A DNA stretch of 64,000 bases from assembly GCA_021776095.1 (NCBI GenBank), contig JAJFGO010000098.1, positions 23,094 to 87,093 of the forward strand. The letters are read 5' to 3'. This DNA comes from Kiloniellaceae bacterium. GTDB taxonomy: Bacteria; Pseudomonadota; Alphaproteobacteria; Kiloniellales; J153. Each line of letters begins with the position of its first letter. Positions within the stretch are counted from its first letter, which is position 1. Both the position numbers and the translations under genes were made by a program. Below the pieces are notes generated by a model, which was given only the letters and a program-made list of their open reading frames with translations, searched no databases and had not been told where the DNA came from. This document shows positions 22,098 through 60,956 of the stretch, in pieces.

Positions 22098-22143
22098 GGC
22101 GCGGGCACACTGCAACACCACACAGACGAAGAAGGGGAAATCC

Positions 22144-22386: not shown

Positions 22387-22406
22387 ACCGGGTCCGGGAC
22401 GGGGTC

Positions 22407-37578: not shown

Positions 37579-37872
37579 GGCACCTTAGGATAGCCATCGG
37601 GTCTCGATCTTCAAGAATCGGGTTCCGGAACTTTGAGCCGGCCCTTCGGGAAAATCCCGCGGGGCCGGTTCTCGTTGTGCTCAGATTTCATTTGACTGCA
37701 ACAAACCAGTAACGCTCCAATCCTCAGTTCGCGAAGGGACGATGTTTCCTGACCTGCCGGGTCCCGGCGGGCTTGTGAAATGCGTCTTGGCCCTGCTAAA
37801 TCAGGTTGGCTTTCCGGCGTCCCGAAGGGCGGCGCAGGACGCGTTGAAATGGGTGTGGGATTGGGAAACGAA

Positions 37873-38736
37873 ATGATGCGGTATGAAGCTCCGGAATCCA
37901 CTAAAGCGGCGGTCAAGCTGCTAGCCGGATCCAGGGACCGGGCGCGGATCCTGGCGGGCGGGACCGACTTGCTGGTCCAAATGCGCTCCGGCATGCCCGA
38001 GCCGGCCCTGGTGATCGACATCAAGCACATCGCTGCCATGGGCGCGATTAAGCGGGAAGCGGGCGGTTTCCGGATCGGTGCGGCGGTGCCCAGCGCCGAA
38101 TTGGGAGAACACGCCGGGCTGGTCAAGGCTTGGCCCGGCGTGGTCGAGGCGGCGGGCTTGATCGGTTCGACCCAAATTCAGGGCCGGGCGACTATCGTGG
38201 GTAACCTGTGCAATGGCTCGCCGGCGGCCGATAGCGTGCCGGCCATGATGGTCGCCGGGGCGCGGGCCCGCATTGCCGGACCCGGCAGGCGACGGGACTT
38301 GCCAGTTGAGAAGGTGGTGGTTGGGCCGGGCAAAACCGCGCTCAAGAGGGGCGAACTGATCGAATCGATCTTTCTGCCCAAGCGCCCGGCGCGCTCCGGC
38401 GACGCCTATCTGCGTTTCATCCCGCGCACCGAGATGGATATTGCGGCAGCCAGTGCCGGTGTTTTCCTGACCCTCGATCGCAAGGGCATTTGTACCGATG
38501 CCCGGGTCGCCATCGGCGCGGTCGGGCCGCGGGCTATTCTGGTCAAACCGGCGGCCAAGGCCCTGATCGGCACGCCGCTTGACGAGGCGGCTCTGACCCA
38601 ACTTGCGGCCGCCTGTTCCGCCGCCGCGCGGCCGATCGACGACAAACGCGGCACCAAGGAATTCAGAACCCACGTGGTCGGCGTCCTGGCGCGCCGCGCC
38701 GCCGTGATCGCGCTCAAGCGGGCAAAAGGTGAATGA
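37873..38736 (+). CDS. Molybdenum hydroxylase FAD-binding medium subunit (CoxM/XdhB-like)
   Basis: MMRYEAPESTKAAVKLL...ILAGGTDLLVQMRSG is typical of FAD_binding_5, with a CO-dehydrogenase flavoprotein C-domain. The start is moved from 37780 to 37873. Confidence 0.88.
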   Translation: MMRYEAPESTKAAVKLLAGSRDRARILAGGTDLLVQMRSGMPEPALVIDIKHIAAMGAIKREAGGFRIGAAVPSAELGEHAGLVKAWPGVVEAAGLIGSTQIQGRATIVGNLCNGSPAADSVPAMMVAGARARIAGPGRRRDLPVEKVVVGPGKTALKRGELIESIFLPKRPARSGDAYLRFIPRTEMDIAAASAGVFLTLDRKGICTDARVAIGAVGPRAILVKPAAKALIGTPLDEAALTQLAAACSAAARPIDDKRGTKEFRTHVVGVLARRAAVIALKRAKGE

Positions 38737-39212
38737 TGTCTCAGATTCCTGTAACAACGACGATCAACGGCGACGCGACCGAATTCCTGTGCGAGGCCGA
38801 CGAAACTTTGCTCGACGTACTGCGCGACCGGCTTGAGTTGAGCGGCACCAAGGAAGGTTGCGGCACCGGCGATTGCGGCGCCTGCTCGGTTATGCTCGAC
38901 GGCCGGCTGGTTTGCTCGTGTCTGGTCTTGGGCGCGGAGGCGGAGGGCCGGGAGGTCGAAACCATCGAGGGTATGGCCGAGGGCGATACCCTCCATCCCC
39001 TGCAAAAGAAGTTTCTGGAACACGCCGCCTTGCAATGCGGCGTCTGCACCCCGGGTTTTCTGATCGCTGCGAAGGCCCTGCTGGAAACCAACCTCGATCC
39101 GACTGAAACCGAGGTCCGCTATTGGCTGGCCGGCAATCTGTGCCGCTGCACCGGCTATGACAAGATCGTGCGCGCCGTGCTGGACACGGCCGCCGAGATG
39201 AGGAGCGCGTAA
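38733..39212 (+). CDS. Molybdenum hydroxylase [2Fe-2S] small subunit (CoxS-like)
   Basis: 159 aa. Cluster motifs CGTGDCGACSV and CGVCTPG...CRCTGY. ATGA overlap with the upstream gene. Confidence 0.93.
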   Translation: MMSQIPVTTTINGDATEFLCEADETLLDVLRDRLELSGTKEGCGTGDCGACSVMLDGRLVCSCLVLGAEAEGREVETIEGMAEGDTLHPLQKKFLEHAALQCGVCTPGFLIAAKALLETNLDPTETEVRYWLAGNLCRCTGYDKIVRAVLDTAAEMRSA

Positions 39213-39215
39213 GCT

Positions 39216-41480
39216 ATGCCTGACCAAGGCCAGATCGCCACCAAACGCAAATTCAAGCTCGTCGGCACCCGGCCGGTACGGCCCGACGGGGTTGACAAGG
39301 TCACGGGCCGGGCGCGTTTCGGTGCCGACATGACCGCGCCGGGCATGCTGCACGCCTTGATTCTGCGCTCGCCTCACGCCCACGCCCGGATCAAGTCGAT
39401 CGATACCTCAAGGGCCGAGCGGTTGCCTGGGGTCAAGGCGGTGGTGACCCGCGACGATTTCGCCCTGCCCGAGCGCCGCGACCTGGTCGATATTTGCTAC
39501 AACGTCATGGCGCGGGAAAAGGCGCTCTACGACGGTCACGCGGTCGCCGCGGTGGCGGCGGTCTCGAAGCCGGTCGCGCGCGAGGCGTTGCGCCGGATCA
39601 AGGTTGTATACGAGATCCTGCCACACGTGACCGACGTTGACGAAGCCATGAAGCCCAATGCGCCGATCCTGCATAAAGACATGCGCACCAAGGGGATCGA
39701 CCCGAAACCGAGCAAGGCGTCCAACGTGGCGCGGCAGTGGGAATTCGGCCATGGCGACGTAGACAGGGGCTTCACCGAGGCCGACATCGTCGTGGAGCGC
39801 ACCTTCAAAACCGCGGCCACGCACCAAGGCTACATCGAGCCGCACGCCTGCCTGGCTAGCGTCGGGTCGGACGGGCAGGGTGATCTGTGGTGCTGCACCC
39901 AAGGTCACTACATGGTGCGCAATGCCTGTGCCGGCCTGCTGGGCATGAAGGTTTCTCAGTTGCGGGTGACCGCCTCGGAAATCGGCGGCGGCTTTGGCGG
40001 CAAAACCACGGTGTTTATTGAGCCGGTCGCCCTGGCGTTGTCCCGCAAGGCCGGGCGGCCGGTCAAGCTGGTCATGTCGCGCAACGAAGTGTTCCGCGCC
40101 ACCGGCCCGACCGCCAGCTCCAGCACTGATGTCAAGATCGGCGTCAAAAAGAACGGCCAGATCACGGCGGCCAAGGCGGTGCTGCGCTATCAAGGCGGTG
40201 CCTTTGCCGGCTCGCCGGTTCAGTTTGGCGCCATGACCGCCTTTGCCTGCTATGATTTGAAGAACGTGCAGACCATCGGCTACGACGTGGTCACAAACCG
40301 GCCGAAGCAGGCCGCCTACCGGGCGCCCGGCGCGCCCTTGGCGGCCTTCGCCATCGAAAGCGTGATCGACGAGCTGGCCACTAAGATCCGCATGGACCCG
40401 CTGGAATTCCGGCTGCTCAACGCGGCGCGCGAGGGTACCAAGTCATCTTACGGGCCGACCTTCGGCCCGATCGGCCTGGAGGCGACGCTCGAGGAATCTA
40501 AGGGCCATCCCCATCATCTGGCGCCGCTTGGGCCCAACCAGGGCCGGGGCGTGGCCTGCGGCTTCTGGTTCAATTTCGGCGGCAATACTTGCGTGTCGCT
40601 CAACATCGGCGAGGACGGCACGGTTTGTCTCTCGGTCGGCAATCCGGACATCGGCGGGTCGCGCGCCTCCATGTGCCTAATGGCGGCTGAGGAACTGGGC
40701 GTTCCCTACGAGCGGGTGCGCACCATCATCGCGGATACGGCGGCGCTCGGTTACAACGAAGTAACCGACGGCAGCCGGGTCACCTTCGCGGTCGGTATGG
40801 CGACGATCAAGGCGGCCCAGGCCGCCAAGGTCAAGTTATGCGAGCGCGCCGCCAAGATCTGGGATATCTCGCCGGAGGCGGTGGTTTGGGAAGACGGCCA
40901 CGCCAGGCCGGCCGGTGCCAACGCCGGTACCTTCAAGCCCATGTCCTTGGCCGATATCGCGGCCGTGGCCGGGTCGACCGGTGGGCCGATCGCCGGCCAT
41001 AGCGAGGCGAACGCCGACGGCGCCGGGGTCAGTTTTGCGACCCACATGGTCGATGTGGAGGTCGATCCGGAAACCGGCCGGGTGACGGTGCTGCGCTACA
41101 CGGTGTTCCAGGACGCCGGTAAGGCGATCCATCCCAGCTATGTGGAGGGGCAGTTCCAGGGCGGGGCGGCCCAAGGCGTCGGCTGGGCGCTTAACGAAGA
41201 ATACATCTATGGCGAGGACGGCCGCTTGCAGAACGCCGGATTCCTAGATTACCGGATTCCAGTTGCATCGGACCTGCCCTTTATCGATACGGTGATCCTC
41301 GAGATCCCGAACCCTGGCCATCCCTATGGCGTGCGCGGGGTCGGTGAGACCTCGATCGTGCCGCCCCTGGCGGCCATCGCGAACGCGGTTTCGGCGGCTG
41401 CCGGTGTGCGGCACACCCAACTACCCATGTCGCCGCCACGGATTCTGAAATCCATCATGGAGAAGCGCGACGGGGTCTAA
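39216..41480 (+). CDS. Xanthine dehydrogenase/aldehyde oxidase-family molybdopterin-binding large subunit (CoxL-like; not a form I CO dehydrogenase)
   Basis: 754 aa. Motifs GGGFGGK, AAYRAPGAP and GVGETSIVP. The active-site loop lacks the VAYRCSFR signature of genuine CODH. Confidence 0.92.
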   Translation: MPDQGQIATKRKFKLVGTRPVRPDGVDKVTGRARFGADMTAPGMLHALILRSPHAHARIKSIDTSRAERLPGVKAVVTRDDFALPERRDLVDICYNVMAREKALYDGHAVAAVAAVSKPVAREALRRIKVVYEILPHVTDVDEAMKPNAPILHKDMRTKGIDPKPSKASNVARQWEFGHGDVDRGFTEADIVVERTFKTAATHQGYIEPHACLASVGSDGQGDLWCCTQGHYMVRNACAGLLGMKVSQLRVTASEIGGGFGGKTTVFIEPVALALSRKAGRPVKLVMSRNEVFRATGPTASSSTDVKIGVKKNGQITAAKAVLRYQGGAFAGSPVQFGAMTAFACYDLKNVQTIGYDVVTNRPKQAAYRAPGAPLAAFAIESVIDELATKIRMDPLEFRLLNAAREGTKSSYGPTFGPIGLEATLEESKGHPHHLAPLGPNQGRGVACGFWFNFGGNTCVSLNIGEDGTVCLSVGNPDIGGSRASMCLMAAEELGVPYERVRTIIADTAALGYNEVTDGSRVTFAVGMATIKAAQAAKVKLCERAAKIWDISPEAVVWEDGHARPAGANAGTFKPMSLADIAAVAGSTGGPIAGHSEANADGAGVSFATHMVDVEVDPETGRVTVLRYTVFQDAGKAIHPSYVEGQFQGGAAQGVGWALNEEYIYGEDGRLQNAGFLDYRIPVASDLPFIDTVILEIPNPGHPYGVRGVGETSIVPPLAAIANAVSAAAGVRHTQLPMSPPRILKSIMEKRDGV

Positions 41481-41514: not shown

Positions 41515-41760
41515 ATGGTCAAGGTTGTGCTCTGGGGGTCGCTCAAACAAGCCGCTGGGGGCAAGACCGAACTCAACCTCGAGGCTAAGAACGTGCGTGA
41601 ACTCCTTGATAGACTGGTGGAACAATACCCTAAACTTGAGGGACACCTGGACCAGGGCGTCTCGGTCTCGATCGACGGCGTGTTGTTCCGCGACGCCTGG
41701 TTCGCTCCGATAAAGCCCGACAGCGAAGTTTACCTCCTGCCCCGCCTTGCTGGGGGGTAG
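41515..41760 (+). CDS. MoaD/ThiS-family ubiquitin-like sulfur-carrier protein (C-terminal GG)
   Basis: 81 aa ending ...EVYLLPRLAGG* immediately before the stop. GGGAGG lies upstream of the ATG. Length and beta-grasp pattern (MVKVVLWGSLK...) fit MoaD. Confidence 0.75.
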   Translation: MVKVVLWGSLKQAAGGKTELNLEAKNVRELLDRLVEQYPKLEGHLDQGVSVSIDGVLFRDAWFAPIKPDSEVYLLPRLAGG

Positions 41761-42612: not shown

Positions 42613-43266
42613 TTAACCGAGCGCCGCTCGTAGGCGTGCCATGAGCTCGTCCGCGGTGATGACACCTGATGGCGAGAGATCAACCCCGCCGGCGCGCAAC
42701 ATGCGCCCTGTCCAGGTATTGCAGGTATTGAATAGGTGGAAAGTGCCGCGCGCGCGATAGAAGCGGCTATTGGCATAAAGTCCGCGCGATACCGGCGCCG
42801 CACGACCGTTATCCGCGCGCTCGAAACTCTCCGCGATGGCTCCGATCAGGGCCCGGAGTCCGGCTTGGCTCAGCCCGACCGGCTCGACGTCAACATCCCC
42901 TTTGCGTCGTTCCGGCGGCCGGTCGAGGCCGGCCAGGTGCATAACCGCAGGGGTTTCGGTGAAGGCAGCGGCCAAGGTCATGCCGATGGTTTTTTCCCGG
43001 GCCGGATAGTAAACCCGATCGCCCCAACCGAACTCGAGGACCGCCGCAACTGGGAAATCGGCCACCTCCGGCAACAGGCCGGTGGCTGCCACATCGGCGC
43101 GCTCGACCACAATGGCGGTGTGCCAGCCATTGCTGACCACGCGCACTGTGTGGGCATGGGGCTCCGGCTCGGCCGGGGGCAGGGGGGCCACCTCCGTACA
43201 GCCGGCCAATCCGGCCGCCAAAATCGTACAGACAAACCACGCCAGGGCGCCAAGTGCCGGTCTCAT
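42613..43266 (-). CDS. Lipoprotein of the DUF2459 / TIGR02117 family (conserved hypothetical, seen near urea-metabolism genes)
   Basis: 217 aa. Signal peptide with lipobox LAG-C, and family-like motifs SNGWHTAIVV and EFGWGDRVYYP. The family name is recalled, not searched. Confidence 0.65.
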   Translation of the reverse strand: MRPALGALAWFVCTILAAGLAGCTEVAPLPPAEPEPHAHTVRVVSNGWHTAIVVERADVAATGLLPEVADFPVAAVLEFGWGDRVYYPAREKTIGMTLAAAFTETPAVMHLAGLDRPPERRKGDVDVEPVGLSQAGLRALIGAIAESFERADNGRAAPVSRGLYANSRFYRARGTFHLFNTCNTWTGRMLRAGGVDLSPSGVITADELMARLRAALG

Positions 43267-43324
43267 GGCGGCAGGTTAACACCGGCGCGCAGGATCGGAA
43301 AAATAGGCAGCAAAGGGGATGCCT

Positions 43325-44245
43325 TTACGCCTTGGGGGCGGCGATGGGGCCGTAGTTCTCCGGCTGGCGGTGCAGGGCGAAATTGAAGATATTGTCCTTG
43401 ATCTCGCGGCAACGGTCCAGATCGCAATCGTGGACGATCACTTCGTCGGCCAGGGTTTGACACTCGGCGACGATTTCGCCGGTCGGGGCGATGATGCAGG
43501 TGCCGCCGATCAAATCGCAGCCTTCTTCCAGGCCAGCCTTGGCGACCCCAACCACCCAGGTCCCGTTTTGGTAGGCTCCGGCCTGCATGACCAGATGGTT
43601 GTGGAAATCCTGCAAGTGGTCGTGCTCGGGCGCCGACGGATAGTGCTGCGGCGTGTTGTAGCCCAGCATCACCATCTCGGCCTTGCGCAGCCCGAGCACG
43701 CGAAAGGTCTCCGGCCAGCGCCGATCGTTGCAGATACACATGCCCATGGTTCCGCCGAAGGCCGGGAACACGGGAAAGCCCAGGTCGCCCGGCTCGAAGT
43801 AGCGCTTTTCCAGGTGCTGGAACGGCCGCCAGGGTTCGGGCTCCGAATGACCAGGCAGATGCACCTTGCGGTATTTGCCCACAATGGCGCCGGTGCCGTC
43901 GACCAGGATCGCGGTATTGAAATGGCGGTCGCCGCCTGCCGTTCGGATCCGCTCGGCATAACCCAGGCAGAAACCGACGCCCAGACCGGCGGCGGCGTCG
44001 AACAGCGACCGGGTCTCGGGCCCGGGCATTTCGGTCTCGAAGAAGCTGTCGATGTCGGCCTGATCCTCGAAATACCAACGCGGGAAAAACGTCGTCAGGG
44101 CCAGTTCTGGAAAGACCACCAACTTCGCGCCCTGATCCGCTGCCTGGCGCAGCAGTGCGATCAGGCGCGCGACCGCCGAAGTGCGCGGTTCATCCCGCGC
44201 GATCGGGCCCAACTGGGCGGCGGCGACCCTCAAATCCCGCGCCAT
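43325..44245 (-). CDS. N-carbamoyl-D-amino-acid hydrolase (D-carbamoylase, nitrilase superfamily)
   Basis: 306 aa. It is very similar along its whole length to my recollection of the Agrobacterium D-carbamoylase. Shared motifs are VFPELALTTFFPRW (Glu), GKYRKVHLPGH (Lys), CICNDRRWPE (Cys) and HRQPENYG. Confidence 0.9.
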   Translation of the reverse strand: MARDLRVAAAQLGPIARDEPRTSAVARLIALLRQAADQGAKLVVFPELALTTFFPRWYFEDQADIDSFFETEMPGPETRSLFDAAAGLGVGFCLGYAERIRTAGGDRHFNTAILVDGTGAIVGKYRKVHLPGHSEPEPWRPFQHLEKRYFEPGDLGFPVFPAFGGTMGMCICNDRRWPETFRVLGLRKAEMVMLGYNTPQHYPSAPEHDHLQDFHNHLVMQAGAYQNGTWVVGVAKAGLEEGCDLIGGTCIIAPTGEIVAECQTLADEVIVHDCDLDRCREIKDNIFNFALHRQPENYGPIAAPKA

Positions 44246-44248
44246 GGC

Positions 44249-45508
44249 TCAAGCCGCTCCAACGACCGACGCCGCCTGGGCGCTCTGGCGGACCGATGCC
44301 GCCGGCCGGCCGACGATCGCTTCGTAGACTTCCGGGTCGGTGTCGCCCTCGGTGCCGAACAACAGAATCCGGCTGTCCGCGTTCAGGCCGAAATCGCGGC
44401 GCGCATCGGCGTCACCGGCGGCGGCCAGCAGCCCGGCCAGCCCGGCCACGGCCGATTCCCCGGCGACCAGCGGCGGGTCGCCGAAGCGGCCATCGGCCAG
44501 GATCCGCATGCAATCGGCGGCCGCGTCGTCGTCCACGGTCATGGCGGCCAGGGTAGCCGGCGCCAGTATCGCCCAGGCCAGCAAGGAAATTTCGCCGCAG
44601 GCCAGGCCGGCCATGATGGTATCCAACTCGCCCTCGACCCCGGTCGGGCGGCCGGCCTTGATGCTCTCGAGCCAGCAGGCCGAATCCTTGGGGTCGACCA
44701 GGACCGTGGCCGGCCGCGCAGCACCCAGATCCTGCCAGAACTGGGCGACCACGGCGGCGGCCATGCCGCCGACCCCGGTTTGCAGAAACAGGTGGCTCGG
44801 TGGACCCGACGCACCCAATTGCTCGGCCGCCTCCGCCGCCATGACTGTGTAGCCCTGCATGACGTCGCGCGGCACGTCCATGTAACCCTCGTAGGAGGTA
44901 TCGGAGACGACAAACCAGACTTCGCGCTCGGCGGCTTCTTGCGCCACGCGGACACTGTCGTCGTAGTTGCCGTCGGTTCTCACGACCTGTGCGCCGAAAT
45001 GCTCGATGGCGTTCTGGCGGCCTTGGCTAACGGTGGCGTGGATGAAGATGACGCAGGCACAGCCGAAGGTCTGGGCACCCCAGGCCACCGAACGTCCGTG
45101 ATTGCCGTCGGTTGCGCAACATACCGTAATGCCGCTTGTGATCTCGCGGTAACGCCCGGCCAGAATATCCGGCAATTCGATCTGCGTCCCGGGCAGGCGC
45201 GCGGCCACTTGTGCCAGCAACAGGCGGGCAACCGCATAGGCGCCGCCCAGAGCCTTGAAGCTGCCGAGCCCGAAACGTCCGGATTCGTCCTTGTAGTGGA
45301 CGCTGGCGACGCCGGCCGCGGCGGCGACGCCGGGCAGGGCCACCAGCGGTGTCGGGGCGTAGCCGGGCCAGGCGGAAATGGTCTCGCGGGCCAGGCGGTA
45401 GCCGGCTTGATCGAGCACCGCCGCTTGTTCCGTTCCGTAGACCGCTGCCGGGTCGTGCCGTCGGTTAAGGGCCAGTTCGAACGGAAAGTGGGGCAATGGG
45501 GTCGTCAT
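44249..45508 (-). CDS. dpaL: Diaminopropionate ammonia-lyase (YgeX/DpaL family, PLP)
   Basis: Motifs YKDESGRFGLGSFKALGGAYA (PLP Lys), ATDGNHGRSVAWGA, MQGYTVMA, IMAGLACGE and GTEGDTD. The start is placed at MTTPLPHF (45508). Confidence 0.88.
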   Translation of the reverse strand: MTTPLPHFPFELALNRRHDPAAVYGTEQAAVLDQAGYRLARETISAWPGYAPTPLVALPGVAAAAGVASVHYKDESGRFGLGSFKALGGAYAVARLLLAQVAARLPGTQIELPDILAGRYREITSGITVCCATDGNHGRSVAWGAQTFGCACVIFIHATVSQGRQNAIEHFGAQVVRTDGNYDDSVRVAQEAAEREVWFVVSDTSYEGYMDVPRDVMQGYTVMAAEAAEQLGASGPPSHLFLQTGVGGMAAAVVAQFWQDLGAARPATVLVDPKDSACWLESIKAGRPTGVEGELDTIMAGLACGEISLLAWAILAPATLAAMTVDDDAAADCMRILADGRFGDPPLVAGESAVAGLAGLLAAAGDADARRDFGLNADSRILLFGTEGDTDPEVYEAIVGRPAASVRQSAQAASVVGAA

Positions 45509-45544
45509 GAGTGAACCGATGCAAGATTGTGACACGAGCCGAAC

Positions 45545-45572
45545 GACCGGGCCCCGGCGAAGGGGCCCGGTC
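45545..45572 (-). terminator. Strong GC hairpin between dctP and dpaL (intra-operon attenuator or mRNA stabiliser)
   Basis: GACCGGGCCCC-GGCGAA-GGGGCCCGGTC has a perfect 11-bp stem. There is no clear U-tract, so it is probably not a full terminator. Confidence 0.45.
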
Positions 45573-45600
45573 CACGGACCAGAGGTCGTGAGGCCTCTAC

Positions 45601-46641
45601 TTACTGGGCTTTCTTGATGGCGTCCAACATGGCGTTCAACATGTCGGTGCCTTCCGCGCCCAGCTTCTCGTCGATCAGCTTGCGTACCGCAGGCTGGGCG
45701 ATGGCGGCGAACTTGGTCAACTCGGCGGGTGACACCGCGTTGACTTCCATCTTCTCCGCCAGCTTGGGCAGACCGCGCTCGGAGGCTTCGATGACGCGGG
45801 AGACGCCGCGCCCGGCTTCGGTCGCGACCTCCGAGGCCCAGTCGACGATCGCCCGGTGTTCGGGCGTCAGGCCTTTGTAGAAATCGCCGTTCATGGTCCA
45901 GATGTAGGGTGTGATCACATGATTGGTGATCGAGAGATACTTCTGGACCTCGTCGAACTTGGCGAAGGCAATGATCGGGATCGGATTCATTTGCCCGTCG
46001 GCGACGCCGGTTTGCAAGGCGGTGTAGACCTCGGCCCAGGGCAGGGGGGTGGGCTGTGCGCCGAGCGAGCCGACCATGGTTTGATGGGTCGGCAGGGTCA
46101 TGGTGCGGATGCGCAGTCCCTCCATGTCCTTGACGCTGGTGATCGGCCGCTTGGAGTTGGAGAACGCGAAGAAGCCGCCGCTATCGATCAGGCCGAGGAC
46201 CTTGAGTCCGGTCGTCTTCTCCAAGTCGGTGGAGAATTTGCGGCCGAAGTCGCTGCGCTGATCGATTACCCGGTTCGCGACCGCGATGTTGGGGAAAGCG
46301 AAGGGTATGTCGAACACGCCGACCAGCGGGTAGTGCTGCGCGATCCCGCCGGCCGAGGAAATGACAGATTCCACGATACCGTCGCGGACCTGCTGGATGA
46401 CCTCGTTGTCCTTACCTAATTGACCGTTGGGGAATAACTGAACTTCGATTCCGCCGCCGCTGGCTGTTTCCACCAGGGACTTGAAGATCGTGGTCATGGC
46501 GCCGGAATGGCTTTCGAAAGCGTCGGCCGGGTTGAGGTGGGCGATCCGGATGGTCACGTCGGCGGCCTGCGCGCTGGCGCTCATGAGGCCGGCCGCCGCC
46601 ATCCCGGCGGCCATCTTGGCTGCTGTACGAAGTAGAGTCAT
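45601..46641 (-). CDS. dctP: TRAP transporter substrate-binding subunit (DctP family)
   Basis: 346 aa. Signal peptide ...SASAQA, then a typical DctP pattern (IRIAHLNPAD..., LRIRTM..., PWAEVYTALQTGVADGQ). Confidence 0.92.
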   Translation of the reverse strand: MTLLRTAAKMAAGMAAAGLMSASAQAADVTIRIAHLNPADAFESHSGAMTTIFKSLVETASGGGIEVQLFPNGQLGKDNEVIQQVRDGIVESVISSAGGIAQHYPLVGVFDIPFAFPNIAVANRVIDQRSDFGRKFSTDLEKTTGLKVLGLIDSGGFFAFSNSKRPITSVKDMEGLRIRTMTLPTHQTMVGSLGAQPTPLPWAEVYTALQTGVADGQMNPIPIIAFAKFDEVQKYLSITNHVITPYIWTMNGDFYKGLTPEHRAIVDWASEVATEAGRGVSRVIEASERGLPKLAEKMEVNAVSPAELTKFAAIAQPAVRKLIDEKLGAEGTDMLNAMLDAIKKAQ

Positions 46642-46697
46642 GTCAGTTCTCCTAGCCGTTAGAGGTTGTTACAGGTCTCAGTACCAGCACGGCCGCT

Positions 46698-47978
46698 TCA
46701 CAGGCCGAGCCAGCGCGGGATGGACATGGTCAGTCCCTCCCAGTACGCGATCACGATCAGCACAAGCGTTTCGGCCAGGAGGAACGGCCAAAGCGACTTG
46801 GTGATGTCCTCGATCTTGGTCTTGGTGACCGAGGCCAGAACGAAGAGGCAGGCGCCAACGGGCGGGGTCATCAGCGAGATATTGAGCGCCAGGATAATCA
46901 TGATCCCGGCGTGGACCGGTTCCATGCCGATTTTCAGCAATAACGGTGCCAGCACCGGCGCCAAGATGATCAGGGTCGCGTTGATGTCCATGAATAGCCC
47001 GATGAACAGCAATAGCGCGATGATCATGCCGATGATGACGTTCGGGTTGGTGGAAAACGCCAGGAACGCGGCCGCGATCGCCTGGGGGATCTGATTGAAG
47101 GTCATCCACCAACCCAGGATGCTGGCCGAGGCGATGATCAGGAAGATAATCCCGGTCAGCCGGGTGGTGCGCACCAGCATCTCGTAGAGATCGCGCCAAG
47201 TGAGTCCGCGATAGATGACGCCGCCGACGATCAGGGCATAGAACACCGCGATCGAGGCGGCTTCGGTCGGGGTCGCGATCCCGCCCAGGATCGAGCCCAG
47301 GATGAAGACCGGCAAAACGATGGCCAGGAAGCTCTGCTTGAAGGCGATCAAGATCGCCATCAGGCTCGGCCGCGAGTCCGATTTCGGCAGATTGAGGCGC
47401 CGCGCCGAGGCTGCGATCACCGCCATGCAGATCAGGCAGATCAAAATGCCGGGCAGGATTCCGGCGGCGAACAGCCCGGCGATGGAAACGCCCATGATCG
47501 AGCCGTAAATGACCGCCAAGGTCGAGGGCGGAATGGTCGGTCCGATGATCGAGCCGGCCGCCGTGACCGCGCAGGCATAGGGCTTGGTATAGCCTTGGCG
47601 CACCATGGCCGGCACCAGGGTGTTGCCGAAGGCGGCGGCGTCGGCCGTCGCCGATCCCGTGATGCCGGCGAACATGACCGAGGCGACCATATTGGAGTGG
47701 GCCATGCCGCCGCGCAGCCAGCCGACCAAGGCGTCGGCGAACTTGACCAGGTTGGTGGTAATCCCGGAGCGGTTCATGATCTCGCCGGCCAGAATGAAGA
47801 ACGGCATGGCGAGGAAGGGAAAGAGGTCCAAACCGGCGAACATGCGGTCGGGTGCCATGGCGATAAAGCGCCCGCCGCCCATTTCGAAGATGCCGACCAG
47901 CCCGGCGACGCCCAGGACCATGCCAACCGGCATGCCGAGCAGCAGCAAACCAAAGAAGGTGATTGCCACGATCAACAT
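46698..47978 (-). CDS. dctM: TRAP transporter large permease (DctM family)
   Basis: 426-aa, 12-TM protein with a DctM-like sequence throughout. Confidence 0.93.
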   Translation of the reverse strand: MLIVAITFFGLLLLGMPVGMVLGVAGLVGIFEMGGGRFIAMAPDRMFAGLDLFPFLAMPFFILAGEIMNRSGITTNLVKFADALVGWLRGGMAHSNMVASVMFAGITGSATADAAAFGNTLVPAMVRQGYTKPYACAVTAAGSIIGPTIPPSTLAVIYGSIMGVSIAGLFAAGILPGILICLICMAVIAASARRLNLPKSDSRPSLMAILIAFKQSFLAIVLPVFILGSILGGIATPTEAASIAVFYALIVGGVIYRGLTWRDLYEMLVRTTRLTGIIFLIIASASILGWWMTFNQIPQAIAAAFLAFSTNPNVIIGMIIALLLFIGLFMDINATLIILAPVLAPLLLKIGMEPVHAGIMIILALNISLMTPPVGACLFVLASVTKTKIEDITKSLWPFLLAETLVLIVIAYWEGLTMSIPRWLGL

Positions 47979-47982
47979 AGGC

Positions 47983-48501
47983 TCAGATCTCCACCCGGTG
48001 GGCGGCGGTCACACCGTCTTCGGCATAAATGTCGTGCAGGCTGACCAGGAAGAGCTGGATGCACGCGATCGCACTGGCCAGAGGCACGGTAATGAAGGGA
48101 TATGCCTTGGGAATTTGGTAGATCATGGTGTAACGGGAAAACCCGCGCTCGACGAAATCTAAGCCATAGAAAAACAATACCGCGAAGAAGCCGAATGCGA
48201 TCACGTCGAAGGCGACCGCCAGCCATTTGCGCACTTCTCGCGGCAAGCGTTCGATGACCACCAAGACGCCGATGTGTTCGCGGTGGCTGATGCCCGAGGA
48301 AACCGCCAGCAAGGCCATCCAGATCATCAGGTAGCGCGCCAGTTCCTCGGTGAAGGTCAGGGGCAGGGGAATGACGTAGCGGGCCAGGACACCCAGCCAC
48401 ACGTCCAGAACGAGTAAGACCATGAGCGCGACACAGAACCGCTCCACATAGCGGTTGAGCCGCCGGCTCGCGACGATCGCCTTCTCGGCTATCGGCTTCA
48501 T
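47983..48501 (-). CDS. dctQ: TRAP transporter small permease (DctQ family)
   Basis: 172-aa, 4-TM protein located 4 nt upstream of dctM. Confidence 0.88.
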   Translation of the reverse strand: MKPIAEKAIVASRRLNRYVERFCVALMVLLVLDVWLGVLARYVIPLPLTFTEELARYLMIWMALLAVSSGISHREHIGVLVVIERLPREVRKWLAVAFDVIAFGFFAVLFFYGLDFVERGFSRYTMIYQIPKAYPFITVPLASAIACIQLFLVSLHDIYAEDGVTAAHRVEI

Positions 48502-48588: not shown

Positions 48589-48635
48589 TGAAACTCGTGT
48601 TTCTCTATGTCAATATATTAAAACTTGAGTTTTAA
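48589..48635. promoter_or_regulatory. Two AT-rich palindromes in the dctQ / rpiR-like divergent promoter region (candidate operators)
   Basis: GAAAC-TCGT-GTTTC at 48590-48603 and TTAAAACT-TG-AGTTTTAA at 48618-48635 (perfect 8-bp arms). They lie in the 173-bp gap between divergent genes. Confidence 0.35.
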
Positions 48636-48674: not shown

Positions 48675-49586
48675 ATGGCAAAAGGCGGCCAAAGATTTAG
48701 CGCAAGCATCGCACGCGCGCCGCGCGCTGGCGGGCGCGGCGCGCGGACGCGATCCCTAGAGGCGCATGTGCGCGGCCACTACGGCGCCCTGCCCGAAAGC
48801 GAGCGCAAGGTCGCCGACCTCATCCTGGATTTCCCTGGGCAGATCGCGGCCTATTCGGCGACCGAGCTGGCGCAGCTTTCCGGTGCCTCTAAGGCAGCGG
48901 TAACGCGCCTAGTCCGGCGTTTGGGATTCGAGAGCTTCGAGGACGCGCGCCGCGCGGCGCGGGATGCGCAAAGCTGGGGTTCGCCGGTTTACCTGCTGCA
49001 CAAGGAGGACCGGAAACAGGATTTCGCCGGCCGGGTCGAGGCCCATATCGCCCAGGACATGGATGTTATCCGGCGCACCTTCGAGGGGCTGGGCGAGGGC
49101 CAATTCGAGGCGATCGTCGAGGCTATCTGCGGCGCGCGACGGGTCTGGCTGTTCGGCCTGCGCAACAGCCGCTACCTGGCCGGCTACCTGCGCTGGCAAT
49201 TGATGCAAGTGCGCGGCGACGTGCACCGGCTGCCGGAGGCGGGCGAGACCTTGCCGGAGTACATCGTGGATCTGGAGAAGGATGACCTTTTTATCGTCAT
49301 TGGGTTTCGTCGCCGGATGCCGGAGGTCCACCGCGCGCTCGACGCCGCTCGGGCCATGGGGGTGAAAACCCTGCTGATCACCGACCCGACCTCGCGTAGC
49401 GAGGACGGCGCGACCTGGACCGTGCGCTGCGAAACCCGCGGGGCCGATGTTTTCGACCGCTACGCCGGCGCCATGTCGTTTCTCCATTTCCTCAGCGTCG
49501 CCGTGGTGGCCAAGGCCGGCGGCCAGGGTCGGAAGCGCTTGGCCGCGATCGAGGCGCTGCACGAGGACTTCGAGGATTTCGGCTAA
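48675..49586 (+). CDS. MurR/RpiR-family transcriptional regulator (HTH_6 plus SIS domain)
   Basis: LPESERKVADLILDFPGQIAAYSATELAQLSGASKAAVTRLVRRLGF forms the HTH, followed by a SIS-like C-terminal half. The start codon is uncertain. Confidence 0.87.
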   Translation: MAKGGQRFSASIARAPRAGGRGARTRSLEAHVRGHYGALPESERKVADLILDFPGQIAAYSATELAQLSGASKAAVTRLVRRLGFESFEDARRAARDAQSWGSPVYLLHKEDRKQDFAGRVEAHIAQDMDVIRRTFEGLGEGQFEAIVEAICGARRVWLFGLRNSRYLAGYLRWQLMQVRGDVHRLPEAGETLPEYIVDLEKDDLFIVIGFRRRMPEVHRALDAARAMGVKTLLITDPTSRSEDGATWTVRCETRGADVFDRYAGAMSFLHFLSVAVVAKAGGQGRKRLAAIEALHEDFEDFG

Positions 49587-49597
49587 ATGCCCCGGCG

Positions 49598-50356
49598 TTA
49601 TGACTCGGCGGGCGGCCCGAGGATCGTCTTGAGGTCGACCAGCGGGTCGGCTTCGGTAACGAAATTCAGAGGCTCCTCAATAAAGCGCAAATGTTGATTC
49701 ATGTGGGCTATGGCGGCTGCCGCGTCGCCATCCCGCAGAGCCCTCGCGACCGTCCAATGGTCATCGTGAGAACACCCCGAATCGCTGGTCATGCCGTAGG
49801 CGGCGATGATCAGCGATGTGCGCGATACCAATTCCTGCAGGAAGGACGAAAGCACCTCATTGCCGGCGATCTGTGCCAAACGCAGATGGAAATCGCCGGA
49901 CAGGCGAATTGCGGCCTGTTTGTCGCTGCGCTCCTGGGCCTTGTGCTCCTCTCGAACAATCGCCGCCAGAGACTCGAACATTTCTTCGGTCATGCGGTCT
50001 GCCGCCCGCTCGACCACCGCCGCTTCGACCGCGCGGCGGGCCTCGAAGACGTGGCGCGCCTCGCGCACCGATGGCTGGGCGACATAGGCGCCGCGGTTCG
50101 GGCGCAACTCGACCAGCTTGGCGTGGGCCAGATTGAGCAGAACCCGCCGGATCTGAGCCCGGGATACGCCGAAGGTTTCGCACAGGGCTTCTTCGCCAAG
50201 CTTGGTGCCGGGCTCAAGGCGGCGCTCCACGATGGCGCCGTACACCCGGGCGAAAATCGTCTCGTCGGCGACCGGCTGACCGCGCCCACCACGACCTAAG
50301 GTCTGTGAAGTGGCGGTTGCCGTGGCTGTCTGTCTGGCGTTTGGCAATTTGGCCAT
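49598..50356 (-). CDS. GntR-family (FadR/FCD subfamily) transcriptional regulator
   Basis: Winged-helix block YGAIVERRLEPGTKLGEEALCETFGVSRAQIRRVLLNLAHAKLVE, plus an all-helical FCD-like C-domain. Confidence 0.9.
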   Translation of the reverse strand: MAKLPNARQTATATATSQTLGRGGRGQPVADETIFARVYGAIVERRLEPGTKLGEEALCETFGVSRAQIRRVLLNLAHAKLVELRPNRGAYVAQPSVREARHVFEARRAVEAAVVERAADRMTEEMFESLAAIVREEHKAQERSDKQAAIRLSGDFHLRLAQIAGNEVLSSFLQELVSRTSLIIAAYGMTSDSGCSHDDHWTVARALRDGDAAAAIAHMNQHLRFIEEPLNFVTEADPLVDLKTILGPPAES

Positions 50357-50464: not shown

Positions 50465-50611
50465 TCAATGAAGGATTGTCGAATATGCTTAACGTCGTGC
50501 CTTCAAGGCGGGCTGGACCCGCCGCCAAGGAACCATGGCGCCGGAATTATAAAGGCCGAAATCGAACGGCTGAAATCGACATAACAAGATCGACACCACA
50601 TGGAGGTTTGG

Positions 50612-51808
50612 ATGAACAAGCGCAACTTTTTGAAATCGTCCGCGGCCGCGCTGGCGATTAGTGCGTTGTCTTTGGGCGCCGCGGGCGGTGCCCTGGCGGC
50701 CAATAAGGTCCTGAAAATTGGGTTTGTCGGCGTGACCAGCGGCCCTGCTGCGGCTTGGGGGACCTCGAACGTGCGGTCCATGCAGACCCGCGCCGCCTGG
50801 ATCAACGAAATCGGCGGTGTGAAGATCGGTGGCGACACCTACGACATCGAAATTGTCACCTTCGATGACCAGAAAGATCCAAAGCGCGCCATTGCCGGCA
50901 TGGAAAAGATGGCCCAGGAAGGCATCCACTATGTTGTCGGCCCGAACGTCGATGACGGCGCGGCGGCGGTGCGCCCGGTCGCCGAGTCCAACGGCATCAT
51001 GTATTTTCCTTATGCCTTCCCCAAGAGTCTCTACCAGAAGCCGGCATCCAATGCCGTCCTGGGGATGATCGCCAACTATCAGTCCGGCCCAGCGATCTAT
51101 AAGTTTCTTCGCGACAAGAAGGGTGTGAAGAAGGTCGCCTTCATAGCCGCCAATGAGTCCGATCCCTTGAGTCAGCGCGACGGCGGGGTGGCTGCCGCCA
51201 ATGCCTTGGGGTTGGAGGTCGTTGCCGACAAAGATACCTATCAGAACGACACCCGCGATTTCGTGCCGGTTCTGACACCGGTTCTGCGGTCCAAGCCTGA
51301 CCTTCTGGTGCTCTCGGGCGTTGCGCCGGGTAATGCGCCGCTGCTGATCCGCTCGGCCCGCGAGTTGGGTTACACCGGTTTCATCTCCACCGAAACCGCT
51401 CAGGATGCGAAGGTCTTGGAAGAAGGCGCCGGCGATTTGGCCAACGGCTTCATTTCCGTCGGTGGCGCCTCGACGCCGGAGATCCGGTCTAAGGCCATGG
51501 AGGAATTCATCGATCGCTACACGAAAATGTTCGGCGAATACAACGATGAGTCCAACACCAAGGTCTATGCCCTGGAATACATCATCGAAACCTTGAAGAT
51601 GAACCCAAAGGGCATTGACGATATTGGCGAATTCAAGAAGACCATGGACAACTTCTCGGCACCGAATCCCTATATGAAGGGAGATGCCACGCTGAAGTAC
51701 GTTGGCATGACCTCGTTCGGACAGAAGCGGCAAGTGGCCGTGCCCATGGTCGTGAACGAATATCGCGACGGCAAGTTCGACACCTTGTTCATTGCCGAAG
51801 TCGATTGA
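50612..51808 (+). CDS. Liv/amide-urea type (PBP1) ABC substrate-binding protein
   Basis: MNKRNFLKSSAAALAISALSLGAAGGALA signal peptide, with GGAGG 7 nt upstream of this ATG. LKIGFVGVTSGPAA and further LivK-family pattern follow. Confidence 0.9.
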   Translation: MNKRNFLKSSAAALAISALSLGAAGGALAANKVLKIGFVGVTSGPAAAWGTSNVRSMQTRAAWINEIGGVKIGGDTYDIEIVTFDDQKDPKRAIAGMEKMAQEGIHYVVGPNVDDGAAAVRPVAESNGIMYFPYAFPKSLYQKPASNAVLGMIANYQSGPAIYKFLRDKKGVKKVAFIAANESDPLSQRDGGVAAANALGLEVVADKDTYQNDTRDFVPVLTPVLRSKPDLLVLSGVAPGNAPLLIRSARELGYTGFISTETAQDAKVLEEGAGDLANGFISVGGASTPEIRSKAMEEFIDRYTKMFGEYNDESNTKVYALEYIIETLKMNPKGIDDIGEFKKTMDNFSAPNPYMKGDATLKYVGMTSFGQKRQVAVPMVVNEYRDGKFDTLFIAEVD

Positions 51809-51831
51809 TCTTACCTCCCTGTCCGACGACT

Positions 51832-51868
51832 GGGGCTCAGAGTCGAAGCTCTGAGCCCCATTTTTCTT
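51832..51868 (+). terminator. Intrinsic terminator/attenuator between the binding-protein gene and the permease genes
   Basis: GGGGCTCAGAG-TCGAAG-CTCTGAGCCCC has a perfect 11-bp stem and is followed by ATTTTTCTT. Confidence 0.65.
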
Positions 51869-51882
51869 GAGAAGCAAATTCA

Positions 51883-52752
51883 ATGGAACAGGTCCTCGCC
51901 AACGGGCTCTATCTAGGTGCGCAATACGCATTGATTGCGCTGGGCCTGACCCTGATCTTCGCGCTCATGAATGTGCTGAACTTCGCGCACGGCCAGCTCT
52001 ACGTGCTCGGCGGGTTTGTGACCTACACCATCTACGGGCAACTGGAGATGCCGTTCGTGGCGGCCTTGTTCGCGGCGGCGGTGACCCTGGCTTTGGTCGG
52101 CGGACTGATGGAACGGTTCTTGTTCAGGACGGTGCTGAAACGCAGCGTCCGTGAAGAAAGCACCATGCTCTTGGCGGCAGGCACCGCGTTCTTCCTGGAT
52201 GCAATTATCCTGTTGATTTTCGGAGAGAAGCAGCGCGGCGTACCGAAAATCGTCGACGGTGTTTTCAATTGGGATTTCCGGCTGATCATGCCCTACGACC
52301 GGATATTGATCGGCTTTCTGGCCATCTTCGCTATCGCGGCTTTCGTCCTCTATATGCAATACAGCAAGACCGGCCGGGCCCTGCGGGCGCTGGCTCAGGA
52401 CCGTGTCGCCGCCCAATTGATGGGCGTTAACGTCGACCGCTATTCGATGATCGGCTTCGCCTTGGGGGCCATGCTGGCCGGAGTGGTGGGCGGCCTTTTG
52501 GTTACCATTACCGGGGTCAATTCAGGCATCGGCGGGCCGATATCCATTAAGGCCTTCATGATGGTGATGATTGGCGGCGCCGGGGTTATTTCCGGGGCCA
52601 TCGCCGGAGGGTTCATTCTGGGAATGTTGGAATCCGTGGGCCTTTCGGTCCTGCATTCCTATGGCGACATAACCTACCTGATGATCTTCGCCTCCTTGAT
52701 GGTGTTCCTGAGCATCCGGCCGCAAGGCTTGATGGGCAAGCCCTGGGGATGA
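51883..52752 (+). CDS. Branched-chain-amino-acid-type ABC permease (LivH-like)
   Basis: 289-aa polytopic protein. MEQVLANGLYLGAQYALIALGLTLIFALMNVLNFAHG is a typical LivH N-terminus. Confidence 0.92.
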   Translation: MEQVLANGLYLGAQYALIALGLTLIFALMNVLNFAHGQLYVLGGFVTYTIYGQLEMPFVAALFAAAVTLALVGGLMERFLFRTVLKRSVREESTMLLAAGTAFFLDAIILLIFGEKQRGVPKIVDGVFNWDFRLIMPYDRILIGFLAIFAIAAFVLYMQYSKTGRALRALAQDRVAAQLMGVNVDRYSMIGFALGAMLAGVVGGLLVTITGVNSGIGGPISIKAFMMVMIGGAGVISGAIAGGFILGMLESVGLSVLHSYGDITYLMIFASLMVFLSIRPQGLMGKPWG

Positions 52753-52756
52753 TGCC

Positions 52757-53746
52757 ATGACCCGGACAACCAAGATCGTGGGAGTCGGGGCCGTTCTCGC
52801 CATATTGCTGGTCGGCATTCCGGCGCTGATCAACATCAGCGGACGATGGGATCTCTACTACACCTTGACCTCGGTGGCGCTGCTCAGCATTGCCAGCGGC
52901 GGGGTATGGCTGACCTTCTACATTGGCCGAATCAACATTGGCCAGGGTGCCTATGCGCTGATGGGCGGCTATGTTTCCGCCATCTTGGTGGTGAAGTACG
53001 GCGTCTCGTTCTGGTTGACCTTGCCCATCGCGGGCCTGTTTTGCGGCGCCGTGAGTGTGTTGATCGGGATCCCCATCCTGCGCTTGCGCGGGGTTTACTT
53101 CGCCATGATCACCTTGGTCCTGACCGAGGTCGCTAGGCTGTCGATGCTGGCGTTGCCGATCACCAACGGCGCGAAGGGCATTACCAACATTCCCTTGCCG
53201 GGGGCCGTGGAGGTATTCGGCCTTACCCTGATTCCGGATTTCGCCACGCTCTCCAACGCGAAACCGGCGTTCTATTACCTCTCGATCGTTTTGATGATTC
53301 TCTGTTTTGCCGGGCTTTACCGCCTGGTCAATTCGCGTCTCGGAAAGCTGTGCCGTTCTCTACAACAAAACGAGGAACTGGCATCGTCCATAGGCGTCAA
53401 CATCGCCTACCTGCGCGTTGTTGCCTATGTCATATCGTCGTTTCTGGGCGGTATCGGGGGCGCGACCTTCGCTGCAATCTCGCAATCGGTTTACCCATCC
53501 AGCTTCACCATCGCCGATTCCATCAATTTCATGCTGAATTGTTTCCTGGGCGGCCTTGGTTACGTCTTTGGCCCGATGCTTGGCACCTTGGTTCTGTATT
53601 TCGGCTGGGACCTGTTGTTTCAAACCGGCGAGTTCCAGCTTCTTATCTTTTCGACGGTGCTGATCGCGTTGATTCTGGCCTTACCGAACGGCCTCTTGAG
53701 CCTGCGTTTCAGCAAGGCCGGGAAGGAGTCGGTGGGCCGTGAGTGA
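52757..53746 (+). CDS. Branched-chain-amino-acid-type ABC permease (LivM-like)
   Basis: 329-aa polytopic protein with INIGQGAYALMGGY and LRGVYFAMITL motifs. Confidence 0.92.
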   Translation: MTRTTKIVGVGAVLAILLVGIPALINISGRWDLYYTLTSVALLSIASGGVWLTFYIGRINIGQGAYALMGGYVSAILVVKYGVSFWLTLPIAGLFCGAVSVLIGIPILRLRGVYFAMITLVLTEVARLSMLALPITNGAKGITNIPLPGAVEVFGLTLIPDFATLSNAKPAFYYLSIVLMILCFAGLYRLVNSRLGKLCRSLQQNEELASSIGVNIAYLRVVAYVISSFLGGIGGATFAAISQSVYPSSFTIADSINFMLNCFLGGLGYVFGPMLGTLVLYFGWDLLFQTGEFQLLIFSTVLIALILALPNGLLSLRFSKAGKESVGRE

Positions 53747-54518
53747 GCTTTTGCAAGTGATCGGGTTGACCAAGCGCTTCGGCGGTCTGACGGCCGTGAA
53801 CAATGTGTCATTCTCGGTCCAGGAGCACGAAATCCTCTCGGTGATCGGACCGAACGGCGCCGGCAAGTCGACCCTGTTCAAGCTGATCGCCTCGTTTCTG
53901 CGGACCAGCGGCGGGGAGGTGCGGTTTCGCGGCGAGCGCATATCGAACCTGGCGCCGCATATCACGGCCCGGAAAGGGATTGTGCGGACCTTTCAGGAAA
54001 CGACCATCTTCAAGGGCATGACCGTGCGTGAAAATGTGGTGATTGCCCACCACTTGCGCTCGAAAGCCAGCCTGTTCGGCTTTTTCATAGAATCCCCGGC
54101 CGCAGCGCGCGACGAGCAGGAATTCGGCCGTTCCGCAGATCAAATTCTGGAATTCCTCGACCTCGGCGAGATCAAGAATGAGGTCGCCAGCAATTTGCCC
54201 CAGGGACACCTTCGGGCCTTGGGTATCGCCATTGGCTTGTCGACCGATCCTACGGTACTGCTGCTGGATGAGCCTTTTGCCGGCATGAACCATGACGAGA
54301 CCCGGCGCGCGGTCGAGATGGTCCGCTCGGTCCGCGATCGCGGGGTTACCTTGCTGCTGGTCGAGCATGACATGTCGGCGGTCATGAAGATTTCGGACCG
54401 GATCGTCGTGTTGAACTTTGGGGAGAAAATCGCCGAGGGCACGCCGGAGGAGATTCAGAGCAACGAGAGTGTCATCGAAGCGTATTTAGGCATTGAAGAT
54501 GAATCGATCGGACTGTGA
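53739..54518 (+). CDS. ABC transporter ATP-binding protein (LivG-like)
   Basis: Walker A GPNGAGKST, Walker B LLLDEPFAGM, and the C-terminal LivG-type tail VIEAYLG. The GTG start overlaps the upstream stop. Confidence 0.93.
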   Translation: MSELLQVIGLTKRFGGLTAVNNVSFSVQEHEILSVIGPNGAGKSTLFKLIASFLRTSGGEVRFRGERISNLAPHITARKGIVRTFQETTIFKGMTVRENVVIAHHLRSKASLFGFFIESPAAARDEQEFGRSADQILEFLDLGEIKNEVASNLPQGHLRALGIAIGLSTDPTVLLLDEPFAGMNHDETRRAVEMVRSVRDRGVTLLLVEHDMSAVMKISDRIVVLNFGEKIAEGTPEEIQSNESVIEAYLGIEDESIGL

Positions 54519-54521
54519 ACC

Positions 54522-55250: not shown

Positions 55251-55255
55251 GAGTT

Positions 55256-55963: not shown

Positions 55964-55973
55964 GGGCAGGCTC

Positions 55974-58165: not shown

Positions 58166-58171
58166 AATACC

Positions 58172-60732: not shown

Positions 60733-60741
60733 GCCTAAGAA

Positions 60742-60936: not shown

Positions 60937-60956
60937 GCACAGGCCCGGCCGCGCCC

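Follow-up and report, generated by a model that had tools for sequence, protein, structure and literature searches.

What would a D-carbamoylase (N-carbamoyl-D-amino-acid hydrolase) act upon in its natural setting when its gene is accompanied not by a hydantoinase but by an importer and a diaminopropionate-degrading enzyme? The question is raised by an operon at positions 42613-48501 of a 64,000-nucleotide stretch of DNA from a Kiloniellaceae bacterium (contig JAJFGO010000098.1, positions 23,094 to 87,093; hereafter the window), in which genes for a tripartite ATP-independent periplasmic (TRAP) transporter precede dpaL (diaminopropionate ammonia-lyase), a D-carbamoylase gene, and a gene for a DUF2459 lipoprotein. 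The physiological role of D-carbamoylases was still called unclear in 2026, and coexistence with a hydantoinase is rare (PMC13011192). At slightly better than an even chance, we take dctQMP-dpaL-carbamoylase to be an RpiR-controlled uptake and catabolism module for a D-configured 2-ureido derivative of 2,3-diaminopropionate. Two compounds come into question as its substrate, alone or together: (R)-3-amino-2-ureidopropanoate and (R)-2,3-diureidopropanoate (DUPA). Among the acyclic intermediates of reductive uric-acid degradation (the 2,8-dioxopurine pathway), they are the last.

An earlier note on this DNA had described six minus-strand genes and a divergent RpiR-type regulator here; family matches agree with that layout, and a public gene call on the same DNA agrees with the open reading frames of the operon. 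Adjacent genes for the small membrane subunit DctQ (47983-48501; PF04290, 90.7 bits), the large membrane subunit DctM (46698-47978; PF06808, 379.9 bits; TIGR00786, 403 bits against a cut-off of 268), and the periplasmic solute-binding protein DctP (45601-46641; PF03480, 252.7 bits) make up a complete DctPQM-type TRAP transporter. They are followed by dpaL (44249-45535, or 44249-45508 with the shorter start), the 306-amino-acid D-carbamoylase of the CN-hydrolase fold (43325-44245; PF00795, 187 bits), and the DUF2459 lipoprotein gene (42613-43266). From dctQ to the DUF2459 gene, the intergenic gaps measure 4, 56, 65 (92 with the shorter dpaL start), 3, and 58 nucleotides; the range of 3-60 nucleotides given previously was nearly right, with one gap, of 65 or 92 nucleotides, falling outside it.

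The window CN-hydrolase is, by sequence, securely a D-carbamoylase, predicted to be D-specific on N-carbamoyl-α-amino acids. It aligned full-length and gap-free by phmmer with the Agrobacterium enzyme 1FO6 (302 residues, 442 bits, E 8e-132), as with the other solved D-carbamoylases 1ERZ and 1UF4 (437-442 bits for all three), and the Agrobacterium industrial enzyme falls inside the window carbamoylase's family in a tree. The catalytic triad Glu47-Lys127-Cys172 is identical in 1FO6 and invariant in 20 homologues, and the family alignment shows no variation at E47, K127, C172, N173, R175, R176, T198, and H144. Asn173, Arg175, Arg176, and Thr198, the contacts of the substrate α-carboxylate in D-carbamoylase (PMC13011192), are thus conserved, with the motifs "CICNDRRWPE" and "GYNTP". 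The statement in the earlier note that no hydantoinase accompanies the operon holds for the whole 64 kb: tblastn with E. coli HyuA, SsnA, YgfK, YgeW, and YqeA returned nothing in the window (E<=1e-8), and Pfam scans covering most of its larger open reading frames revealed no hydantoinase-type cyclic amidohydrolase. This absence had been presented as an oddity; it is in fact the rule, as only 2 of 80 related loci carry a HyuA homologue.

The dpaL product, a YgeX orthologue of 428 amino acids when begun at the GTG at 45535 (the public gene call prefers the ATG at 45508), clears the cut-offs of the equivalog model NF006058 (500.9 bits; cut-off 276) and the subfamily model TIGR01747 (312.5; cut-off 274), and scores 336.6 on the TIGR03528 equivalog, the cut-off of which is 532. 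Its identity to E. coli YgeX is 38%, and PDB entries 5YGR and 4D9G match it at E about 1e-73. Pairwise alignment with YgeX places conserved residues at E. coli K77, D120, and D189; in the E. coli DpaL structure paper, K77 is reportedly the lysine that holds pyridoxal 5'-phosphate (PLP), with D120 and D189 being catalytic or substrate aspartates. DpaL is also weakly active on D-serine. The earlier suggestion that this operon would provide DpaL with a physiological role is outdated, that enzyme having been given one by now (PMC12990295).

In 2025, two studies and a commentary set out a reductive urate route, with intermediates described as new to biology, in which urate is converted to 2,8-dioxopurine, then to ureidomethyl-hydantoin, and then, via HyuA, to DUPA. 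There, YgeW strips one ureido group by phosphorolysis, YgeY removes the other, and YgeX (i.e., DpaL) forms pyruvate; in vitro, the three enzymes carried DUPA through mono-ureido-diaminopropionate and diaminopropionate to pyruvate. The ureido intermediates are assigned as (R), which for this skeleton is the D configuration, so that a D-specific N-α-carbamoyl hydrolase fits the 2-ureido group. Culture supernatants of C. sporogenes mutants in the pathway have yielded these intermediates. C. difficile swaps YgeW for UacY, a D-specific hydrolase of the D-aminoacylase family, and the two studies disagree on which ureido group YgeW attacks. DUPA and 3-amino-2-ureidopropanoate can be obtained by heating diaminopropionate with urea (10.1101/2025.04.24.650524). 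One substrate put forward in the earlier note, N-carbamoyl-D-diaminopropionate, is the very (R)-3-amino-2-ureidopropanoate (UA-6) of the 2025 uric-acid work.

Neighbourhood conservation was followed from both ends of the operon. On the carbamoylase side, a genome scan gave 80 loci with a carbamoylase 65-79% identical to that of the window, of which the 71 with at least 3 kb of upstream DNA were informative, and DpaL was counted if encoded within 4 kb; the nearest relatives are Kiloniellaceae, Rhodobacterales, and Hyphomicrobiales metagenome-assembled genomes. The dpaL-carbamoylase adjacency, which the earlier note had proposed to check in related genomes, is kept in 34 of these 71. The same TRAP genes stand in the same order in 21, 20 of which also encode DpaL, with RpiR usually divergent. 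Gene order and junctions of 3-4 nucleotides are kept across Alpha-, Beta-, and Gammaproteobacteria and metagenomes. The dpaL-carbamoylase pairing is more than chance, recurring in many unrelated genomes and metagenomes. On two metagenome contigs, L098 (734-2700) and L100 (4875-6800), the carbamoylase gene directly follows dctP with no dpaL between them, and L100 is without dpaL in roughly 7 kb further downstream.

In most of the DpaL loci (28 of 34), an M20 hydrolase of roughly 410 amino acids is encoded between dpaL and the carbamoylase gene. This AmaB/AllC-type protein passes the models NF006769 and NF006771 (allantoate-amidohydrolase subfamily) and TIGR01879 (hydantoinase/carbamoylase family amidase). 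With a second ureido-hydrolase present in most relatives, the ancestral substrate probably carried two ureido groups, and the scheme of the earlier note, with its single ureido-hydrolase, is to that extent incomplete. The window operon is without the intervening M20, a state that looks derived, since the window carbamoylase nests among M20-containing loci in a neighbour-joining tree (built without support values). In a 93%-identical relative known from sediment metagenomes, the order is dctP-dpaL-carbamoylase, likewise without M20 and without DUF2459. The M20-less dpaL-carbamoylase form is seen in the window and in L083/L084, L029, L118, L120, L128, L015, L035, L041, L046, and L065; it recurs independently and therefore looks functional. 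A search of the M20-less loci for alternative amidases found none.

The transporter side was surveyed through 80 metagenome loci chosen by similarity to the window DctP alone. Among these, 28 encode a D-carbamoylase, 27 an AmaB-type M20, and 7 YgeW and/or YgeY (49-85% identical to E. coli), with the carbamoylase/M20 set never occurring together with the YgeW/YgeY set (0 loci). DpaL is encoded in 21 loci, a ThrC-like PLP enzyme in 17, and both in none; HyuA and SsnA are encoded in none of the 80. The module is composed of the transporter, one of two ureido-cleaving pairs, and one of two PLP enzymes. On a Desulfocapsaceae contig (L087), a DctP 87% identical to that of the window is encoded beside YgeY (72% identical to E. 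coli), two fold-type-II PLP enzymes, and YgeW (66%), and a SAR324 contig joins ygeW-ygeX-ygeY-yqeA to M20-carbamoylase.

Two fold-type-II PLP enzymes accompany the module in relatives (L003 1930-3402, L085 3615-5102, L086 2761-4233, L045 10962-13611, and L087 4105-6673), neither being encoded in the window. One is a CysK-like protein of 490 amino acids, often encoded after the carbamoylase; the other, threonine-synthase-like and of roughly 390 amino acids, is present only where DpaL is absent, and may be a non-orthologous diaminopropionate-degrading enzyme. Carbamate-kinase genes (YqeA-like, 41-47%) were also seen near TRAP genes, in L099 (5866), L104 (555), L101 (1793), L110 (7114), and L167 (2467); two of these five metagenome loci carry the carbamoylase/M20 set, without YgeW in the available DNA.

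DctP is unusually conserved, homologues being 80-96% identical across Alphaproteobacteria (Rhodobacteraceae), Gammaproteobacteria, and Desulfocapsaceae. Its nearest solved relatives are 4N8G, 4NGU (from Desulfovibrio alaskensis), 4NQ8, and 4P47. R179 of DctP ("GLRIRT") aligns with an arginine of 4N8G ("GLRFRA") and is invariant in 24 homologues; this conserved DctP arginine has a role in carboxylate ligand selection (PMC4646407). The AlphaFold2 model of DctP is poor, with a predicted local distance difference test score (pLDDT) of 62 and a shallow alignment behind it. Gene context leads us to predict a 2-ureido derivative of D-2,3-diaminopropionate as the DctP ligand. A comparison of M20-less with M20-containing clusters found no DctP positions that separate them systematically, nor was a separate DpaL clade found for the M20-less loci; there is thus no sequence sign of a changed specificity in the window variant.

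Upstream of dctQ and separated from it by 173 nucleotides, an RpiR/MurR-type regulator with HTH_6 and SIS domains (PF01418, PF01380) is encoded divergently on the plus strand (48675-49586); its homologues (33-60% identity) are divergent beside dctQ in at least 15 related loci. The space between holds a candidate promoter/operator (48590-48634, minus strand), in which two palindromes of the GAAA-N6-TTTC type (48619-48634 and 48590-48603) surround a TTGACA (48608-48613). Of 15 RpiR-dctQ intergenic regions, 13 contain such a palindrome and 8 contain two, as compared with a mean of 0.4 loci with at least two palindromes in base-shuffled controls; in the window and five related loci, the two copies start 31 bp apart. 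L001, L016, L032, L053, L061, and L074 are among the related loci in which the pair is seen between RpiR and dctQ. RpiR probably represses the operon via this candidate palindrome pair flanking TTGACA.

The scheme that these genes suggest would proceed as follows: (i) DctP would bind the ureido carboxylate via R179, with DctQM importing it; (ii) the D-carbamoylase would hydrolyse the 2-ureido group to CO2 and NH3; and (iii) DpaL would eliminate both amino groups of diaminopropionate, affording pyruvate and two NH3. In most relatives, the M20 encoded between dpaL and the carbamoylase gene would take off the 3-ureido group. The window lineage appears to have lost this M20, implying that it uses a mono-ureido compound or borrows another amidohydrolase. 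For the missing step, three readings remain: the ligand is mono-ureido; DctP accepts both compounds; or another amidohydrolase takes its place, e.g., the allantoate amidohydrolase or the ArgE/DapE-type M20 encoded about 10 kb away. The ligand of the module, the order of its steps, and the stereochemical match are those that we infer from gene context. The sequence of import, decarbamoylation, and DpaL-catalysed elimination laid out in the earlier note survives in its core logic, which fits both the synteny and the replacement by YgeW/YgeY, and requires the M20 step for completeness.

Several observations weigh against this assignment. About half of the close carbamoylase homologues have no DpaL nearby, e.g., all Bradyrhizobium loci, and the family is accordingly not tied throughout to this role. 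The window has no second hydrolase, yet its DctP is not systematically unlike the DctPs of M20 clusters; were DUPA the ligand, the scheme would be one step short. Genes for upstream, DUPA-forming enzymes are not linked to the operon, and an environmental source of the ureido-diaminopropionates has to be assumed. The nearest solved relatives of DctP are only about 32% identical to it. Finally, the YgeY gene of the Desulfocapsaceae contig contains an in-frame TAG (3099-3101), right after the conserved "GRGASD"; this may reflect a pseudogene or nonsense mutation, a sequencing or assembly error, or recoding.

Other substrates would also bring a carbamoylase and DpaL together. The operon might serve a different, aerobically made ureido compound, perhaps arising via the neighbouring enzyme related to xanthine dehydrogenase (XDH), with the likeness to urate breakdown reflecting shared chemistry. 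Convergently to the operon there is indeed an XDH-family molybdenum enzyme of three subunits, for FAD, 2Fe-2S, and Mo (37780-41480, plus strand). The host also possesses a cbb3 oxidase, and its allantoin cluster is of the aerobic type. In two Rhodobacteraceae loci (L008 6148-9745 and L012 6146-9743), the carbamoylase gene is immediately preceded, in the same orientation, by genes for an XDH-family enzyme 68-69% identical to that of the window. This XDH link, however, is found in only 3 of about 80 loci, L008 and L012 are without DpaL, and the YgeW/YgeY (63-85% identical to E. coli) encoded beside transporters of the window's family suggest that the substrate is shared with urate breakdown; we consider an aerobic compound of this kind unlikely. 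A little less likely again is general scavenging of N-carbamoyl-D-amino acids, e.g., carbamoylated D-serine or D-alanine, with DpaL acting as a dehydratase for D-serine or in other β-eliminations. The weak activity of DpaL on D-serine would fit this, as would 4N8G, the solved binding protein nearest to DctP, whose structure was reportedly determined with D-Ala-D-Ala. Characterised D-carbamoylases do accept many N-carbamoyl-D-amino acids (PMC13011192). Such scavenging would nonetheless leave unexplained both the second ureido-hydrolase of most relatives and the replacement by YgeW/YgeY, and at the positions of the E. coli aspartates D120 and D189, which are specific for diaminopropionate, DpaL is conserved.

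The earlier note had also named L-albizziine (2-amino-3-ureidopropionate) and N-carbamoyl-D-serine, both of which are now less favoured, the carbamoylase family being one that acts on N-α-carbamoyl-D-amino acids. Albizziine, from plants and natural products, is a known natural amino acid that decarbamoylation would turn into diaminopropionate, and β-ureidopropionases of the CN-hydrolase fold exist among the PDB matches, so that the window enzyme could be imagined to attack its 3-ureido group in that manner. But the ureido group of albizziine sits on the β carbon, and its α-amino group is free rather than N-α-carbamoylated; in addition, the window enzyme gives a 442-bit gap-free alignment to strict N-α-carbamoyl-D-amino-acid hydrolases, with all α-carboxylate-binding residues conserved, as against just 45-88 bits with the β-ureidopropionases. 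Albizziine catabolism is thus improbable. We give the least credence, with very little probability left to it, to an adjacency without meaning, i.e., independent genes merely packed together. Its attraction is that no promoter or terminator signal above shuffled expectation was found within the operon, and that the DUF2459 gene is truly an unrelated neighbour; the conservation of gene order and short junctions across proteobacterial classes and metagenomes speaks against it, as does that of the candidate operator palindromes.

Treatment of the DUF2459 gene as part of the operon unit, as in the earlier note, has to be abandoned. No DUF2459 gene was present in any of the 80 carbamoylase-selected loci, any of the 80 DctP-selected loci, or the 93%-identical relative, and its homologues sit in three unrelated contexts; on this evidence it is a same-strand neighbour rather than a conserved module member. 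The protein scores 124.6 bits on PF09601 (cut-off 27) and 120.7 on TIGR02117 (cut-off 131), its N-terminus ends in a lipobox (L-A-G-C), and a Foldseek search of its confident AlphaFold2 model (pLDDT 85.6) against the PDB gave no match below E=0.1 (best E 0.1). Two invariant residues, His49 and the Cys182 of "NTCNTW", would suit a Cys-His hydrolase.

Beyond the regulator gene, and past a GntR/FCD regulator on the minus strand (49598-50356), lies a separate, complete-looking allantoin/ureide catabolic cluster (50600-63733, plus strand) under that GntR regulator, such that two ureide-degrading modules stand side by side in the window. It encodes a branched-chain-type ATP-binding cassette importer, a class-V aminotransferase, AllG and FdrA (oxamate carbamoyltransferase components), an Asp/Glu/hydantoin-racemase-family protein (55256-55963) about 7 kb from the operon, PuuE allantoinase (55974-56891; 545 bits), an allantoate amidohydrolase (56831-58165; 566 bits), and an ArgE/DapE-type M20 (58172-59479), to which a YgeY query gave a weak 25% match. 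A small ThiS-family open reading frame (41515-41760) follows the XDH-family genes. Elsewhere in the window, genes at 21363-25631 (plus strand) for LamB/YcsF (PxpA-like), biotin carboxylase, and two carboxyltransferase-domain proteins (PxpB/PxpC-like) form a 5-oxoprolinase or urea-amidolyase-related cluster, and a 165-amino-acid open reading frame with only the C-terminal half of PALP (12919-13416, minus strand), which may be a gene fragment, lies beside a full-length PALP gene (13612-14679, minus strand).

A broader proposal, which we advance tentatively and at somewhat less than an even chance, is that D-carbamoylase in nature does the work of YgeW by hydrolysis, as a non-homologous counterpart, within a widely distributed module linked to a transporter, whereby marine, sediment, and soil Proteobacteria would scavenge DUPA and (R)-3-amino-2-ureidopropanoate from anaerobic purine degraders. 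If true, an industrial enzyme would gain a natural substrate, a new ligand could be predicted for a TRAP binding protein that is very highly conserved, and late purine-breakdown products would pass between anaerobes and aerobes as a source of nitrogen and carbon. The gene swaps (D-carbamoylase for YgeW, AmaB-type M20 for YgeY) would then bear independently on the order of ureido cleavage, which is disputed, and would favour attack of YgeW on the 2-ureido group. Our literature searches found nothing on carbamoylase together with diaminopropionate ammonia-lyase or on albizziine together with diaminopropionate, and no mention of a carbamoylase or TRAP system in work on diureidopropanoate.

Among known systems, the lower urate branch of E. 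coli and Clostridium sporogenes (YgeW, YgeY, YgeX, and YqeA) shares its final enzyme with the window, DpaL being YgeX, as well as the general logic of stripping ureido groups from a D-configured diaminopropionate skeleton before the formation of pyruvate; in other organisms, the window's transporter family adjoins genuine YgeW/YgeY. The operon is nevertheless not a member of the reductive uricolytic cluster, since it lacks YgeW, YgeY, YqeA, HyuA, SsnA, YgfK, and XdhD; YgeX is the only protein of that cluster with a clear homologue in the window, where the XDH-family enzyme is a distant relative (26% identical to XdhD) encoded convergently to the operon. The window pathway would begin with a TRAP importer of an acyclic acid rather than with a urate permease, and its host, which encodes a cbb3 oxidase, looks aerobic or microaerobic. 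Its CN-hydrolase would also remove the ureido group hydrolytically, such that no carbamoyl phosphate or ATP is gained. In this respect it resembles the C. difficile variant, in which UacY replaces YgeW/YqeA and irreversible, D-specific hydrolysis of the 2-ureido group takes the place of phosphorolysis. UacY, however, belongs to the amidohydrolase superfamily (PF07969) and resides in a full urate cluster without a transporter, whereas the window enzyme has the unrelated CN-hydrolase fold.

The D-hydantoinase-D-carbamoylase (hyu) systems of Agrobacterium and Pseudomonas provide the closest match for the carbamoylase itself, with gap-free alignment and an identical triad and carboxylate-binding residues. 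Without a hydantoinase, the window operon is not a hyu system; its carbamoylase is instead coupled to DpaL and a TRAP importer, and the substrate would enter as an open-chain ureido acid. For DctP, the best match by both sequence and fold is Csal_0660 (PDB 4N8G), which shares with it and with Enzyme Function Initiative relatives the DctP fold and the conserved carboxylate-binding arginine, at only about 32% identity. The M20 of the relatives corresponds to the allantoate amidohydrolase step of aerobic purine catabolism, in that it satisfies two subfamily models for allantoate amidohydrolase. The enzyme of this name in the window is encoded in the separate cluster and is only 34-39% identical to that M20, and DUPA is itself the one-carbon-longer analogue of allantoate (diureidoacetate).

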